Source: Gemmatimonadota bacterium
GTDB lineage: Bacteria > Latescibacterota > UBA2968 > UBA8231
Direction of reading: 5' to 3'
Assembly: GCA_038128265.1 (NCBI GenBank)
Contig: JAYPJE010000014.1
Location: 45,458 to 82,948, forward strand
DNA length: 37,491 bases
Part shown: positions 20,137 through 29,886 of the stretch, in pieces
Layout of the letters: each line of letters opens with the position of its first letter
Position numbering within the stretch: the first letter of the stretch is position 1
Translations under genes and position numbers: made by a program
Notes under the pieces: generated by a model
What the model saw: only the letters and a program-made list of their open reading frames with translations
Told to the model about the DNA's origin: nothing
The model's database searches: none

Positions 20137-20835
20137 CTATAATTTGCGCGCGCCGAATGCCAGCAGAAACTCCATCGGCTGGTCCCGGGTGCGCGGCCAC
20201 GTTTCGCGCCCGACTAACCCTACGCCCGGGGAATAATACGATGCGTAGGACATGACCTGGGATTCTTCCACGCGGCGAAAATGCGTAACGACTTGTATGC
20301 AGCGCTCATAGCGCAGCCCGTCGACCGTCAGCAGCGTATCGCGGACGCCGATTTCCTTCTCTATGTAAAAGCCCTGGCTGCGGTATGCGTAGGGAACAGA
20401 TGCCTCCGTCGCATCGACGACGACGACATTGACGCCCCCTTCGGGACCCATTTCAAACACCTTGCCTTCTTCGCGGTAGGCGACCGTGCCATCGTCAAAA
20501 AAGTAGACGTCGCGTTCGGCTCGGCTCTCTCGACGCACAATGCGACGCTCGACCTCCGTCGTCGTGCCGCGCGACAGGTCGTGCCGCCGGTAAATCCAGT
20601 AACGACCTACTTCCAGTGGATAGAACGTCTGCTCAGCCGAATCGATCTCGGACGCAACGGACGCTGTGGGAGCAGGAGCTTGAACCACCTCGTCGACGGT
20701 TGAATGCACGCCGCCAACCTGTCCCCTATGCCACAGCGCAATGGCCGCAGCCATCAGACACGCACCGCCGACCAATCCCAACGCGCGCGCAGCCCAGTCG
20801 CTGCGCCGGCGCCCTTTTTTAAATCGAAATGCCAC
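20137..20835 (-). CDS. N-terminally membrane-anchored hypothetical beta-rich protein
   Basis: GTG 20835 after GGAGG; basic N-terminus then TM; FYPLEVGRYWIY and LTVDGLRYERCIQV...YYSPGVGLV motifs of an uncharacterised (DUF3108/TapB-like) exported family. Confidence 0.6.
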   Translation of the reverse strand: MAFRFKKGRRRSDWAARALGLVGGACLMAAAIALWHRGQVGGVHSTVDEVVQAPAPTASVASEIDSAEQTFYPLEVGRYWIYRRHDLSRGTTTEVERRIVRRESRAERDVYFFDDGTVAYREEGKVFEMGPEGGVNVVVVDATEASVPYAYRSQGFYIEKEIGVRDTLLTVDGLRYERCIQVVTHFRRVEESQVMSYASYYSPGVGLVGRETWPRTRDQPMEFLLAFGARKL

Positions 20836-21020
20836 AATTACCTCCGCATCCTTACTATCGGACCGGCTACCAAAACCTTGATCTTTATATTGGAGCCTAC
20901 GCCGCACCCCATCACACAACCCAAGATGTTGTTATATAAGACCTATACTACCCACTACCTGCGGCCCTCTAGCTTACGACAACTGCGCGGCAAAATCCAC
21001 CCACTGGGGCAAACGCACCC

Positions 21021-21049
21021 TCGCCATAAAAGGCGCGATTCCATATATT
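21021..21049 (+). promoter_or_regulatory. Putative promoter of the ASPDH-like operon
   Basis: TCGCCA-N17-TATATT, followed by AGGAG RBS before ATG 21096. Confidence 0.5.
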
Positions 21050-21095
21050 CTGCCTGTTTTTTCCAGCGCATTCCTCTCTCGATAGGAGAACCGCC

Positions 21096-21893
21096 ATGAG
21101 CACACACGCGACGCGCATCGGCCTGGTGGGCTACGGCCAGATAGGCCGCGCCGTTCATCAGATGATAGATGCCAATCCACACACCGGCATGCAGGTGGTC
21201 TTTGTCCACGACCAATTTACAGCGGCCCTCGACGACGTCCCTACCGATCTAGCACTCGCAGACTTGGCCCAATTTGAAGAGAAAAAACCCGACCTAGTCG
21301 TCGAGATGGCCCATCCCGACGTGACGCGTGCCTGGGGCAAAACCATTCTGGAAAAAACCAACTATATGTTCATATCGGTGACCGCACTGGCCGATCGCCA
21401 GGTCGAGCAAGACATCGAAGAAACGACGCAGCGCTGCGGCACGCGCGCCTTTGTTCCGCACGGCGGCGTCGTCGGCATGGACGCCCTGCTGGAAAATCGC
21501 GACGTGTGGGAATCGGTCGACGTTATCATGAAAAAGCCTCCGCACAACGTCGACTGCGCGGCCGCTGGCCTAGATCCGGACGAGATCAAGGAAGAAACGA
21601 CGCTCTACGACGGACCAACGCGCGGCATCTGTCCGCTCTTTCCACGCAACGTAAATACCCACGCCGCCATAGCCTATGCCGGCATTGGCTTTGACCGCAC
21701 GCACTCGGTGCTACAGGTCAACCCCGCCTGGAAAGAAGCCACCGTTGCCATTCACGCTAAGGGGCCCGGCATCGACCTGCACGTCGAGCGCGTCGAGGGC
21801 ATTACCGGCGTAACGGGCGCATCGACGCCTGCCTCAATCTACAACACCGTGCAGATGATCGGCTCGGCCGGTCCAGGTATCCATCTGCGATGA
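21096..21893 (+). CDS. Aspartate dehydrogenase (DUF108) family NAD(P)-dependent oxidoreductase, ASPDH-like
   Basis: Rossmann GLVGYGQIG; PDLVVEMAHP; LYDGPTRGICPLFPRNVNTHAA; lacks the NadX NPKTS motif. Confidence 0.85.
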   Translation: MSTHATRIGLVGYGQIGRAVHQMIDANPHTGMQVVFVHDQFTAALDDVPTDLALADLAQFEEKKPDLVVEMAHPDVTRAWGKTILEKTNYMFISVTALADRQVEQDIEETTQRCGTRAFVPHGGVVGMDALLENRDVWESVDVIMKKPPHNVDCAAAGLDPDEIKEETTLYDGPTRGICPLFPRNVNTHAAIAYAGIGFDRTHSVLQVNPAWKEATVAIHAKGPGIDLHVERVEGITGVTGASTPASIYNTVQMIGSAGPGIHLR

Positions 21894-23056
21894 AAGCATT
21901 TGCCAGCATTCCCTCGCAAATACCGCGCTCGGGCATACGCGAAATCATGGACATGGCCTGGGCAGTCGAAAAGCAGCGGCCCGTTATCCACCTGGAAGTC
22001 GGCCAGCCCGACTTTGCCACGCCCGCACATATTGTCGATGCCACCTGCCGCTATGCGCGCGAGGGCCATACAAAGTACGTGCCCAATGCAGGTGTAGATC
22101 CGCTGCGCCAAGCCGCTGCGCGCTATTTCCAAGAGCGTAGCGGCGTCGAGACGACGGTCGAGAACATTCTCGTCACGCCCGGAGCCGTTATGAGCATCGC
22201 CTCGGCCTTTTTCTCGCTGCTCGAACCAGGAGACGAAGTGCTGTTACCCGATCCGGGCTGGCCCAACTACAATATGGCCGCGTCGCTTATTCACGCGCAG
22301 CCCGTCTTCTACGATCTGCGCCCAGAAAATCAATTTTTGCCCGACCTGGATCAGATAGACAGCCTCGTTTCGCCGCGCACGAAGCTACTGCTGCTGTGCA
22401 CGCCGTCCAACCCGACGGGGCAAGTCTACGACGCAGATACGATGTCGGCGCTAATGCAGTTGGCTAGCCATCACGACCTCTGGGTGCTGTCCGACGAGAT
22501 CTACGCCGATATCACTTTTGGCGAAGGCCATATTTCGGCGCTATCATACGATGGCGATGGGCGCGCACTCATCGTCAGCGGCATGTCGAAGAGCTACGCC
22601 ATGACGGGCTATCGAGTCGGTTTTACGCGCGGACCGCGCGACTATATCGAGCTGGCAGCCAAGCTGCAGGAACCGTTTGTTTCCTGTGGCACCGGCTTTT
22701 CCCAACTGGCCTCGGCAGAGGCGTTAGGCGGCCCGCAGGACTGCGTCGAAGAAATGCGCGATGCCTACGGTCGACGGCTGCAGATTGCTCTCGATATCCT
22801 GCGCGAATACGACCTATACCGCTACAGTCCGGGTGGAGCCATCTACCTGCTCATCGACATAGCGCCCTCTGGCCTAAACTCGCACGAATTCGCCACGCGC
22901 CTCCTGCAGGAAAGGGGCGTAGCCGTTGCACCCGGCAGCACATTTGGCGCCATGTGTGCCGACCACGTGCGCATTTCCATCGCTGCATCCGATGAGCATA
23001 TCCAACAGGGCGTCACGGCTATCTGCCAAATGGTGCACGATCTGGCAACGGGCTAA
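21890..23056 (+). CDS. PLP-dependent aminotransferase class I/II (AspC/AspB-like)
   Basis: GQPDF, PSNPTG, SDEIY, PLP-lysine motif MSKSYAMTGYRVG, PGSTFG...VRIS; ATGA overlap with the upstream gene. Confidence 0.93.
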   Translation: MKAFASIPSQIPRSGIREIMDMAWAVEKQRPVIHLEVGQPDFATPAHIVDATCRYAREGHTKYVPNAGVDPLRQAAARYFQERSGVETTVENILVTPGAVMSIASAFFSLLEPGDEVLLPDPGWPNYNMAASLIHAQPVFYDLRPENQFLPDLDQIDSLVSPRTKLLLLCTPSNPTGQVYDADTMSALMQLASHHDLWVLSDEIYADITFGEGHISALSYDGDGRALIVSGMSKSYAMTGYRVGFTRGPRDYIELAAKLQEPFVSCGTGFSQLASAEALGGPQDCVEEMRDAYGRRLQIALDILREYDLYRYSPGGAIYLLIDIAPSGLNSHEFATRLLQERGVAVAPGSTFGAMCADHVRISIAASDEHIQQGVTAICQMVHDLATG

Positions 23057-23619
23057 TGCGGCTGCAGCGAGCGCACCGTCTGGCCCTGGCCAGAGTGCAT
23101 GCAGACGTGGCCTCACAGCTAATAAAAACGCTGTCGCAAGCGCTTGGAGAACAGGTATATGTGGGACTAGTTGGTCAGCGGCTCTGTCGCTTTGGCGATT
23201 TTATCGAACCGCTGACCGACCCATCCTGCATTTTTAACTTCTCCATGTGGTCGACCACGGCAGAGGGCCGCCGCGATCAGCAGCTAGGCTGGGGCGTATT
23301 TGACTTGGCCATGCCCATCGCCCGCATCCTGCTCGGCGAAGATTCGACTGCACCGCGCCCGTTCACCAATGCCGATATGAAGATTCTCCGCCCCACCATA
23401 CGCAGCATCATCGGCGCGCTGCAAACAGCGTGGAGCGTCGACGACCGGGGCGTGGCTATTGGAGACATCCAGCTCAAGAACAGCCCGCAGAACATCAGCG
23501 TCATCGCATCGGAAACACCATCGGCCACTGTAGATATGGAAATTGACTTCGGCTCGCGCGCCGATCCGCTTTACTTCTGTTATCCAGCTACGCTGATAGA
23601 AACGTTGGTAGACAAGTAA
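23056..23619 (+). CDS. Stand-alone FliM middle-domain (CheC-like fold) protein
   Basis: FGDFIEPLTDPSCIFNF, ILLG...RPFTNADMKIL...LQTAW, KNSPQNISVI, FCYPATLIETL align by eye with the FliM middle domain; TAATG overlap. Confidence 0.68.
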   Translation: MRLQRAHRLALARVHADVASQLIKTLSQALGEQVYVGLVGQRLCRFGDFIEPLTDPSCIFNFSMWSTTAEGRRDQQLGWGVFDLAMPIARILLGEDSTAPRPFTNADMKILRPTIRSIIGALQTAWSVDDRGVAIGDIQLKNSPQNISVIASETPSATVDMEIDFGSRADPLYFCYPATLIETLVDK

Positions 23620-27673: not shown

Positions 27674-28717
27674 ATGCTCAGACAATGCGACCTCTTCACC
27701 AGCGGCCACGAGGCATATCACACCTTCCGCATTCCCTCTATCGTCGCCACCCGCGCCGGCAGCCTGTTGGCCTTTTGCGAGGGACGGCGCGGCGGTCGCG
27801 GCGACAGCGGCGACATCGATATTCTCCTGCGCCGCAGCGATGACGGGGGCAGCACTTGGTCCGCTATGCAAACGGTGTGGGCCGACCCTGGAAACACCTG
27901 CGGTAACCCGTGTGCCGTCGTCGACCGCGACAGCGGTGCTCTGTCGCTGCTGCTGACGCACAATCTGGGCACGGACGTAGAGCACCAAATTATCGAAGGC
28001 AGCAGCGAAGGCACGCGCACGGTCTGGCTAACGCGCAGCGAAGACGACGGGCATTCCTGGAGCACGCCACAGAATATTACCCACGCTACCAAGATGGACG
28101 ACTGGACTTGGTATGCGACCGGCCCGGGCGCTGGTATCCAGCTGCGCAGCGGACGCCTCGTTATTCCCTGCGATCACATAGAAGCCGAGAGTAAAAAATA
28201 TTTCTCCCACGTTATTATCAGCGACGACGGCGGCAAGAGCTGGCGCCTGGGCGGCACCACGCCGCAGGACCAGGTCAACGAGTGCGAGGTGGCCGAATTG
28301 GACGACGGCCGGCTGTTGCTCAATATGCGCAACTACGACCGCAACCAGCGCACGCGCGCTGTAGCAACCAGCGACGACGGCGGAGAGAGTTGGTCGACGC
28401 TGACCCGTCAGAGCGAATTGATTGAGCCCATCTGCCAGGCCAGTCTGCGCCGCCTAGAGGCACCCAATGCGAAACTGCTGCTCTTTTCCAATCCGGCCAG
28501 CGAAGAGAGGCGCGAAAACATGACCGTGCGCCTGAGCCGCGACGACGGCCGTACCTGGCCCGTAGCGCGCTCCCTGCACGCCGGACCGGCCGCCTATTCG
28601 TGCCTGCTAGCCATGCCCGACGGCAGCGCCGCATGTCTGTATGAATGCGGTCAGGAGCATCCATACGAAGTGATTCGCTTTGCCCATTTTGACCCATCGT
28701 GGCTCCTGGGCACCTGA
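27674..28717 (+). CDS. Sialidase-family (GH33/BNR) glycoside hydrolase, no signal peptide
   Basis: FRIP motif; five Asp boxes (SDDGGSTW, SEDDGHSW, SDDGGKSW, SDDGGESW, SRDDGRTW); NECE, MRN, AYS. Confidence 0.9.
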   Translation: MLRQCDLFTSGHEAYHTFRIPSIVATRAGSLLAFCEGRRGGRGDSGDIDILLRRSDDGGSTWSAMQTVWADPGNTCGNPCAVVDRDSGALSLLLTHNLGTDVEHQIIEGSSEGTRTVWLTRSEDDGHSWSTPQNITHATKMDDWTWYATGPGAGIQLRSGRLVIPCDHIEAESKKYFSHVIISDDGGKSWRLGGTTPQDQVNECEVAELDDGRLLLNMRNYDRNQRTRAVATSDDGGESWSTLTRQSELIEPICQASLRRLEAPNAKLLLFSNPASEERRENMTVRLSRDDGRTWPVARSLHAGPAAYSCLLAMPDGSAACLYECGQEHPYEVIRFAHFDPSWLLGT

Positions 28718-28755
28718 CCAGCGCCCGTTGCCCGCTAGAGAATGTGAGCCGACGC

Positions 28756-29886
28756 ATGAACATAACCGATATGCGCGTATTTGCCGTTGCGCAGTTTGTC
28801 TACGTTAAAATCGAAACCGACGAAGGCCTATACGGGCTGGGCGAAGCCTCTCTCAGCGGGCGCAGCATGGCCGTCGTCGAGGCGCTCCACGCGATCAAAC
28901 CCCTGCTTATCGGCCGCGACGCCACGCGCATCGAATTTATTTGGCAGGACATTTTCCGCGGCACGTTCTGGCGCGGCGGCCCCGTCTTGCAGTCGGCACT
29001 GGCTGGCATAGACATCGCCTTATGGGACCTAGCCGGCAAGGCTCTGGGCGTGCCAACCTATCGCCTATTGGGTGGCGCGGCCCGCGACAAGGTGCTGGTA
29101 TATCGCCACGTGCGCTGCAGCGATATACCCGGCATGATCGAACACGCCCGCTCCCTGCTCGAAGAGGGCTACAAGGTCCTGCGCATGTCGCCGCTGGACG
29201 CCTTTGCGCCTGACCACGTATTCGACGCCGTGCGCGGCCTGCGCGAAGCAGTAGACTATATGGCGGCACTGCGCGAAGCGGTGGGCCCGGACGCACAGAT
29301 TATCTTTGAAGCCCATACGCGCCTCAATCCGCCGCAGGCCGTTGAACTGTGCAACAATCTGGCCCCTCATCGCCCCTTTTACGTTGAAGACCCCATACGC
29401 TCGGAAAATCCCGCTTCGTTTGCCCACCTGCGCGCCCACACGGACGTGGCCCTTGGCACGGGCGAACAGCTGCACGACAAATGGACGTTTCGCGAGCTTA
29501 TTGAGCGGGAATTAGTCGACTACCTGCGCGTGGATATTTGCCACACAGGAGGTATTACAGAAGGCAAGAAAATCGCTGCCATGGGCGAAGTGCACTACCA
29601 GGAGATGGCGTGCCACTACACGGCCAGCCCGGTCAGCACGGCCGCCATGCTGCACCTAAATCTCTCCATAGCCAACTGCGCCGTGCAAGAGTTTGCGCCC
29701 AGCGGCGGCTGGATGGACGACGTCATCCAGACCAGCTATGTCCTCGAAGACGGCTACCTACTCGCACCCGGAACGCCGGGCCTCGGCATCGATATCGACG
29801 AAGAGGCAGCGGCGGCGCATCCACCCGCCCTGCCGGACGAACCACCGCATTGGCGTCGTCCAGACGGTTCAGTCAACGATTGGTAA
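28756..29886 (+). CDS. Mandelate racemase/enolase-superfamily acid-sugar dehydratase (DgoD/ManD-like)
   Basis: FWRGGPVLQSALAGIDIALWDL.GK.LGVP; metal-ligand strands FEAH, VEDP, TGEQ; PGLGIDID; RPDGSVNDW terminus. Confidence 0.9.
   Translation: MNITDMRVFAVAQFVYVKIETDEGLYGLGEASLSGRSMAVVEALHAIKPLLIGRDATRIEFIWQDIFRGTFWRGGPVLQSALAGIDIALWDLAGKALGVPTYRLLGGAARDKVLVYRHVRCSDIPGMIEHARSLLEEGYKVLRMSPLDAFAPDHVFDAVRGLREAVDYMAALREAVGPDAQIIFEAHTRLNPPQAVELCNNLAPHRPFYVEDPIRSENPASFAHLRAHTDVALGTGEQLHDKWTFRELIERELVDYLRVDICHTGGITEGKKIAAMGEVHYQEMACHYTASPVSTAAMLHLNLSIANCAVQEFAPSGGWMDDVIQTSYVLEDGYLLAPGTPGLGIDIDEEAAAAHPPALPDEPPHWRRPDGSVNDW

Follow-up and report, generated by a model that had tools for sequence, protein, structure and literature searches.

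What does an operon do that couples an aspartate dehydrogenase-like enzyme to an aminotransferase? The question is raised by two plus-strand genes in a 37,491-nucleotide stretch of a Gemmatimonadota bacterium genome (GenBank contig JAYPJE010000014.1; this whole stretch is hereafter "the window"). The first gene (21096..21893) encodes P0001, a NAD(P) oxidoreductase of the aspartate dehydrogenase (ASPDH) superfamily, and the second (21890..23056) encodes P0002, a class-I aminotransferase. A preliminary description of the locus regarded P0001 as a bacterial homolog of animal-type ASPDH and proposed that the operon could hint at what the eukaryotic enzyme acts on. We find that the operon is a real, conserved and uncharacterized enzyme pair within a known superfamily, and that its dehydrogenase is neither NadX nor the bacterial counterpart of animal ASPDH. 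As a tentative account of its function, we propose a self-contained module of two co-transcribed genes, whose enzymes share a 2-oxo or 2-imino acid intermediate and together serve as a shuttle for transdeamination or ammonia assimilation.

The dehydrogenase and the aminotransferase are a conserved pair

P0001 begins with the ATG at 21096, and an AGGAGA that reads as Shine-Dalgarno-like (21084..21089, + strand) lies 6 nt ahead of this start codon. The TGA stop of P0001 overlaps the ATG start of P0002 as ATGA at 21890-21893. Translation and Pfam searches place the 265-amino acid P0001 in the ASPDH superfamily (Asp_DH_C, PF01958, 60.6 bits; NAD_binding_3, PF03447, 39.9 bits; both exceed the Pfam cut-offs), and alignment and trees assign it to a "His-less" type described below. 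P0002 (388 amino acids) is an aspartate aminotransferase (AspAT)-like, pyridoxal phosphate (PLP)-dependent enzyme by its translation, Pfam match (Aminotran_1_2, 236.9 bits) and ortholog synteny. Close homologs of P0001 carry the source label "DUF108 domain-containing protein". The DUF108-family assignment and the ATGA overlap of the preliminary description were both borne out by sequence and Pfam, and the motifs that it quoted (PDLVVEMAHP, LYDGPTRGICPLFPRNVNTHAA, GVTGAST and a terminal PGIHLR) are all found in the product.

We then surveyed the neighborhoods of P0001 homologs. Among genome contigs, 57 loci carry a P0001 ortholog (64-95% identity), and 56 of these include downstream DNA. In 55 of these 56, the dehydrogenase is followed at a distance of 0-26 nt by a P0002 ortholog (63-94% identity), and the ATGA overlap itself is present in 33 of the 56. 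At the single exception, L049, the gene 136 nt downstream specifies another AspAT-like aminotransferase of class I, with 28% identity. A metagenome set of 80 loci yielded 21 of the P0001 type, 19 with room downstream, and 18 of these 19 have the P0002 ortholog; the remaining one, L125, has an enzyme of the L049 type. Some of the metagenome contigs are probably duplicates of genome contigs; L120 and L046, for instance, are equal in length. The dehydrogenases of the two exceptional loci are 64-67% identical to P0001, and the presence of another AspAT-like enzyme in the same place indicates that the class of the partner is kept even when the gene differs. Conservation of the aminotransferase linkage, which the preliminary description had left to a neighborhood survey, was therefore found in both sets.

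This linkage does not extend to the sister subfamilies. No P0002-like neighbor was found at any of 59 loci whose dehydrogenase is closest to P0123, P0124, P0125, P0126 or a paralog on contig C31 of the source genome (28 of the 59 have at least 1.2 kb downstream). The weak matches there were a DegT-type sugar aminotransferase (L094) and a gene of 23% identity on the opposite strand, 1.75 kb upstream (L172). The aminotransferase link is thus specific to the P0001 ortholog group.

In a survey of the GTDB phylum, the ortholog (E ≤ 1e-80) was detected in 67 of 168 genomes, including the source genome. The genomes bearing it all fall in one GTDB family (66/75), with none among 92 genomes of 13 other families, and overall the pair is confined to this family and a few Planctomycetota. 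Most loci also have a wider synteny in common (lnt, tatC ... manC, pmi), which means that most of the linkage counts reflect descent. Two Phycisphaerae loci, L055 and L057, share only the two genes with the window, and argB and argF lie beside them on the other strand. These two loci are more independent cases of linkage, and L049 and L125 are further ones. As L055 and L057 have nothing else in common with the window, the two genes are apparently transferred together. Full-text literature searches turned up no description of a dehydrogenase-aminotransferase operon of this kind, in agreement with the earlier statement that the pair is uncharacterized.

P0001 is not NadX

The most familiar function in this superfamily is that of NadX, an L-aspartate dehydrogenase supplying iminoaspartate for NAD synthesis. 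P0001 shares with NadX its two-domain architecture (NAD_binding_3 plus Asp_DH_C) and the motifs GxGxxG, PxG...G.D, K.P and FPRN.N, and it gives weak matches to all AspDH models of NCBIfam. In contrast, it fails every NCBIfam AspDH cut-off, the best score being 111.5 against a cut-off of 177 (NF009828), and that for TIGR03855 (NadX) being 84.6 against 206.55. The only solved relatives detectable from its sequence are Thermotoga maritima NadX (TM1643, PDB 1J5P/1H2H; 54.6 bits, E 1e-13) and Archaeoglobus fulgidus AspDH (PDB 2DC1; 34.5 bits, E 1.5e-7).

To place P0001 among its relatives, we searched 1.84 billion cluster representatives with HMMER and recovered 1605 relatives at E ≤ 1e-3. Among the 101 full-length 50%-cluster representatives nearest P0001, just seven match an AspDH model of NCBIfam at E ≤ 1e-50, and no more than six score above a curated AspDH cut-off; many proteins of this set (P0123-P0271) are labeled "aspartate dehydrogenase" by their sources. 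Two unrooted IQ-TREE phylogenies, a "quick" one of 97 rows and a "careful" one of 60 rows, were built from representatives nearest P0001, a sampling that leaves out distant NadX proteins such as that of T. maritima, and the two trees agree. In the 60-row tree, a 100/100 branch divides the NadX-type rows, including six that pass the NCBIfam AspDH cut-off, from all others, and P0001 lies across this branch from them. In the family alignment, the column of T. maritima NadX His193 is occupied by Val217 in P0001, while 32 of 38 NadX-side rows of the 97-row set have His there.

The genomic context points the same way. The window lies on contig C14 of the source genome (4.29 Mb, 84% complete). In this genome, nadB (534 bits, cut-off 453) is found on C15, with nadC on C2 and nadA on C53. 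The preliminary description had correctly seen neither nadA nor nadC near the operon, and the conserved partner of P0001 is an aminotransferase instead. Since nadB, nadA and nadC are all encoded elsewhere, P0001 is not required for NAD synthesis and the pair does not fill a gap in that pathway. P0001 is not NadX, and an ordinary L-aspartate dehydrogenase role, largely refuted by these results, is exceedingly improbable.

The earlier description reached the same view of NadX from the missing NPKTS motif. That motif is indeed absent from P0001, but it is not a general mark of NadX: among 104 family rows, NPK[TS]S is confined to two (P0242 and P0265, both of which pass proteobacterial-type AspDH models), and P0186 passes the TIGR03855 NadX model without it.

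P0001 lies outside the clade of animal ASPDH

We next considered the proposed kinship with animal ASPDH. P0001 matches the Sorex araneus ASPDH (P0212; isoform X2 by its NCBI name) with 31% identity over 277 amino acids (BLASTP, E 2e-33), and Equus (P0229) and Rhinolophus (P0205) proteins are also among its relatives. The P0001 and Sorex proteins have in common PDLVVExAHP, LYxGPxRGxCP, VTGxxT and a C-terminal PGIHL, the shrew protein ending in PGIHLC. The motif match to human ASPDH given in the preliminary description therefore holds for a mammalian ortholog, the shrew sequence rather than the human one being that compared. In the family tree, P0001 and the animal proteins both lie on the non-NadX side. 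The AHP motif is not diagnostic, however, as other non-NadX groups have it too.

The substrate of ASPDH, described earlier as uncertain, has since been reported. According to a June 2026 preprint, human ASPDH is without aspartate dehydrogenase activity and is instead a 2-aminomuconate reductase (AMR), which uses NAD(P)H to form L-2-aminohex-3-enedioate, reducing the C2 enamine/imine of 2-aminomuconate without release of ammonium (bioRxiv 10.64898/2026.06.05.730449). The preprint implicates human His223 in proton transfer and places it two positions ahead of the His conserved in NadX. It gives the fate of the AMR product as unknown, with transamination as one plausible route, and describes a clear separation of prokaryotic from eukaryotic members of the family.

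One possibility, in line with the preliminary description, is that P0001 is AMR-like, reducing 2-aminomuconate or a related conjugated enamine, with P0002 carrying out the next step on the unsaturated amino acid. The shared motifs, the position of P0001 on the non-NadX side and the naming of transamination as a fate of the AMR product would all fit. However, the 60-row tree contains a 100/100 AMR clade of 18 rows (mammals, Macrostomum, Salpingoeca, Candidatus Uabimicrobium and a Myxococcota metagenome-assembled genome, or MAG) from which P0001 is excluded, and the 97-row tree gives the same result (100 SH-aLRT). A second His-less clade (100/98) joins the AMR clade at 93/91. P0001 forms a 100/100 group with P0013 and the Planctomycetota copies (L049, L055), and this group joins P0123 and P0124 at 99/93. 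Raw phmmer scores of P0001 overlap between AMR-type proteins (92-121 bits) and NCBIfam-validated AspDH representatives (90-121 bits), so that P0001 is no closer to the former than to the latter.

The active-site residues also differ. The column of the mammalian His is Ala215 in P0001, two residues upstream of Val217, and this position is Ala in 117 of 118 P0001 orthologs and Ser in the other, versus His in 25 of 27 AMR-clade rows. Column 189 is His in P0001 but Met in the animal enzyme, and the residues following beta-2 are Asp-Gln in place of Asn-Arg. P0001 therefore lacks both catalytic histidines; Val217 is kept in 112 of the 118 orthologs, and none has a His at either column. By this alignment, P0001 is a putative third active-site type of the superfamily, lacking both the NadX and the animal-AMR histidine. 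Asp39, at the end of beta-2 in 117 of 118 orthologs, weakly suggests a preference for NAD rather than NADPH; we do not take it as proof of NAD specificity, as T. maritima NadX aligns an Asp at the same position.

Pathway co-occurrence gave a further contrast with the animal enzyme. The gene for 3-hydroxyanthranilate dioxygenase (3-HAO) was not found in four pair-bearing genomes (G000-G003, G000 being the 84% complete source genome and G003 having its locus from a complete-chromosome record), versus scores of 192-194 bits in both genomes with AMR-type proteins (G012 and G180), which serve as a positive control for this negative. Likewise, kynureninase was not found in the pair-bearing genomes G000, G002 and G003 and was found in G012 and G180. 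Kynurenine-pathway genes thus went undetected in the searched genomes that have the pair.

Taken together, the position outside the AMR clade, Ala215 at the AMR His column and the failure to find 3-HAO run counter to the reading of P0001 as an animal-type ASPDH, and we consider an AMR-like reaction very unlikely. P0001 is not the ortholog or bacterial counterpart of animal ASPDH. With human ASPDH now reported as an AMR, the operon cannot point to the substrate or pathway of the animal enzyme, and this part of the preliminary description falls away.

A separate lead to the animal enzyme came from other bacteria. Bacterial proteins with the AMR-type His, such as P0217 (Ca. Uabimicrobium sp.) and P0277 (the Myxococcota MAG), fall inside the AMR clade, basal to its eukaryotic rows. 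The lead comprises the loci L086/L089 (G012:C1:936920-937738) and L087/L090 (G180) and the proteins P0217 and P0254/P0277. The two Uabimicrobium-type genomes, G012 and G180, encode 3-HAO and kynureninase, and in neither does the AMR-type gene or that for 3-HAO adjoin a pathway gene or an aminotransferase, so that the gene context gave no hint of the reaction following the AMR product. Set against the prokaryote/eukaryote split described in the preprint, these bacterial members bear on the origin of the animal enzyme, and such proteins with the animal signature are the place to seek clues to it.

P0002 resembles class-Ib aspartate aminotransferases

The partner enzyme was compared with solved aminotransferases. 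The best solved relatives of P0002 are the Phormidium lapideum AspAT (1J32, E 1.3e-71) and the Thermus thermophilus AspATs (1BJW/1B5P), with E-values from 1e-71 to 1e-66. P0002 aligns end to end with these class-Ib enzymes and keeps the PLP-binding Lys, the Asn, the Asp-x-x-Tyr and the carboxylate Arg, its motifs SKSYAMTG (PLP-Lys), PSNPTG, DEIY and VRIS (carboxylate-Arg) aligning with those of 1J32 and 1B5P. In contrast to them, P0002 passes no NCBIfam equivalog cut-off (its best score is 283.9, with 575 required; for NF041091 it is 283.6, with 550 required), and it has Val where 1J32 has Lys (GGKQS). This position corresponds to Lys109 of the Thermus AspAT, which we take to bind the distal carboxylate of the substrate. 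P0002 also has an N-terminal SGIR motif, which serves the distal-carboxylate role in other class-I enzymes, and given this motif we no longer regard the change of Lys109 to Val as proof of a non-dicarboxylate substrate. A Lys109-bearing class-Ib AspAT is encoded separately, on contig C1 of the same genome.

The two enzymes may share a 2-oxo or 2-imino acid

Three residues are invariant in all 118 P0001 orthologs and conserved throughout the superfamily: His122 of the PHG motif, Lys147 of MKKPP and Arg184 of FPRNVN. Their retention favors a conserved chemistry at an alpha-amino or alpha-imino carboxylate. Combined with the chemistry of the assayed non-NadX member at C2 of an amino/imino dicarboxylate, these residues lead us to infer C2 redox chemistry for P0001. 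Since class-I aminotransferases act at the same C2 center, the most economical interpretation is a 2-oxo or 2-imino acid common to both enzymes, which could be the hinge of a shuttle or of an aminotransferase-first route that ends in imine reduction. Action of the two enzymes at an amino-acid C2, the substrate that they use and the direction of flux are all points that we infer.

As a shuttle, P0001 would use NAD(P)(H) to convert an L-2-amino acid reversibly into ammonium and the matching 2-imino/2-oxo acid, and P0002 would link this keto acid with glutamate/2-oxoglutarate or with other amino acids, the pair together performing transdeamination or ammonia assimilation. The leading substrate candidate would be a dicarboxylic amino acid, with aspartate/oxaloacetate first. 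Transdeamination by an aminotransferase together with glutamate dehydrogenase is part of general amino-acid catabolism. This route is mentioned in PMC9986279. The logic proposed here is the same, namely an aminotransferase and an NAD(P)-linked amino-acid dehydrogenase joined by one shared keto acid, whereas the dehydrogenase has the ASPDH fold rather than being of the ELFV type, and the two genes lie in one translationally coupled operon.

Several observations weigh against such a shuttle. Most of the linked loci belong to a single GTDB family whose wider synteny is conserved, and are not independent events. With the histidines of both branches missing from all 118 orthologs, oxidative deamination would need another base, and none was found; His220 is variable (87/118) and His189 is not invariant (104/118). 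The Val of P0002 at the Lys109 position, within a GAV that is kept in 55 of 56 orthologs, weakens the case for Asp/Glu as substrates. Finally, the genome has a glutamate dehydrogenase as well as the Lys109-bearing AspAT on C1, which would make a shuttle redundant. Gap-filling roles for the pair were also considered and rejected: the genome already has this glutamate dehydrogenase, proC and proA for proline synthesis, and DapL (572 bits) for the lysine/diaminopimelate (DAP) route, dapD being absent in nine of nine relatives.

Alternatively, the two reactions could run in sequence. P0002 would act first and remove the alpha-amino group of its substrate, the 2-oxo product would be present as a ketimine or enamine or would cyclize to one, and P0001 would be purely an NAD(P)H-dependent imine reductase yielding a new, possibly cyclic, L-amino acid. 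Plant pipecolate synthesis by ALD1 and SARD4 follows such an aminotransferase-then-reductase logic. Human ASPDH, the only non-NadX member of known activity, reduces a C2 enamine/imine without ammonium release; loss of both histidines would fit a ready-made imine that needs only hydride transfer; and a self-contained, mobile pair is what would be expected of a two-step conversion of a common metabolite. Against this, P0002 has shown no features specific for diamino acids, no pathway gap exists given proC, proA and the DAP/lysine route, and Asp39 hints, if weakly in view of the T. maritima Asp, at NAD rather than NADPH. We judge this order of reactions to be improbable.

It is possible, though doubtful, that P0001-type proteins constitute a third catalytic class, defined by the lack of both histidines and by the acidic residue after beta-2, with a substrate that is neither aspartate nor 2-aminomuconate. 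Together with the aminotransferase, such an enzyme would form a mobile two-step route that is off the metabolic maps. If this were true, the route might run, for example, from the aminotransferase through a ketimine or enamine to a new or cyclic L-amino acid, or might alternatively be a dedicated non-glutamate transdeamination shuttle.

Lastly, P0001 might be a hydroxy-acid or alcohol dehydrogenase that makes a carbonyl for amination by P0002. Dehydrogenases make a carbonyl that an aminotransferase then aminates in the SerA/SerC and WbpB/WbpE pairs. The N-terminal domain of P0001 is of the homoserine-dehydrogenase type (NAD_binding_3), the histidines that handle the amine are lost, and a P0123-type relative (L094) adjoins the DegT-type sugar aminotransferase noted above and an ABC-2 exporter. 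However, the superfamily-wide residues of FPRNVN and MKKPP are kept, P0002 is an aminotransferase of the amino-acid rather than the sugar type, and no precedent for hydroxy-acid chemistry was found within the family, which makes this explanation quite unlikely in our view.

The operon bears on a wider problem of annotation. The label "aspartate dehydrogenase" is attached to most members of the ASPDH superfamily, but a curated AspDH model is passed by only six of the 101 full-length representatives nearest P0001, and the sole assayed non-NadX member, human ASPDH, is reported to catalyze a different reaction. The dedicated aminotransferase partner gives a clean, conserved handle on another branch of this superfamily, for which a substrate screen is straightforward.

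Other relatives and surrounding sequence

Other relatives of P0001 have neighbors of their own. Contig C31 of the source genome carries a second His-less ASPDH-like paralog (L001:1018-1806, + strand; 262 amino acids, 44% identical to P0001), flanked by genes for an enolase-superfamily (MR_MLE) protein and a glucuronyl-esterase-like protein. Metagenome genes of this paralog's type have an adenosine-deaminase-family amidohydrolase ahead of them, with an MR_MLE gene in between in L144. Further His-less subfamilies likewise show recurrent neighbors: P0125-type genes have an amidohydrolase before them (L147, L163) and a TctA transporter (L147, L151) or a molybdenum hydroxylase (L102) after them, and the dehydrogenases of L124 and L170 precede a PALP-family PLP enzyme, as that of L094 precedes its sugar aminotransferase. 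These distinct, recurrent neighbors suggest several distinct functions within the superfamily.

Upstream of the operon lies a divergent intergenic region of 176 nt (20920..21095), in which one weak sigma-70-like match was found at 21021-21049. It contains two promoter-like sites against 1.4 expected in shuffled sequences, showing no enrichment, and a terminator scan likewise returned nothing above shuffles. No riboswitch or other Rfam element was detected in 20700-21300, the sole match being to a long non-coding RNA at a chance level (E 0.56). A riboswitch or leader controlling the operon was therefore dropped as a candidate, the Rfam, promoter and terminator scans all being unsupportive.

Downstream, a 187-amino acid open reading frame (23056-23619, + strand) overlaps the aminotransferase stop as TAATG and gives a near full-length but weak match to FliM (32.6 bits). 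Its similarity to the L006 sequence, from the closest relative, falls in two separate reading frames, and in other loci it is essentially absent. We rejected this frame as a third operon gene since it is not conserved, and it is probably a decaying relic. Farther along the window (27674-29886, + strand), a BNR/sialidase-like gene is followed directly by a gene of the mannonate/galactonate-dehydratase family; these two genes are unrelated to the operon, and both are retained in the closest relatives.

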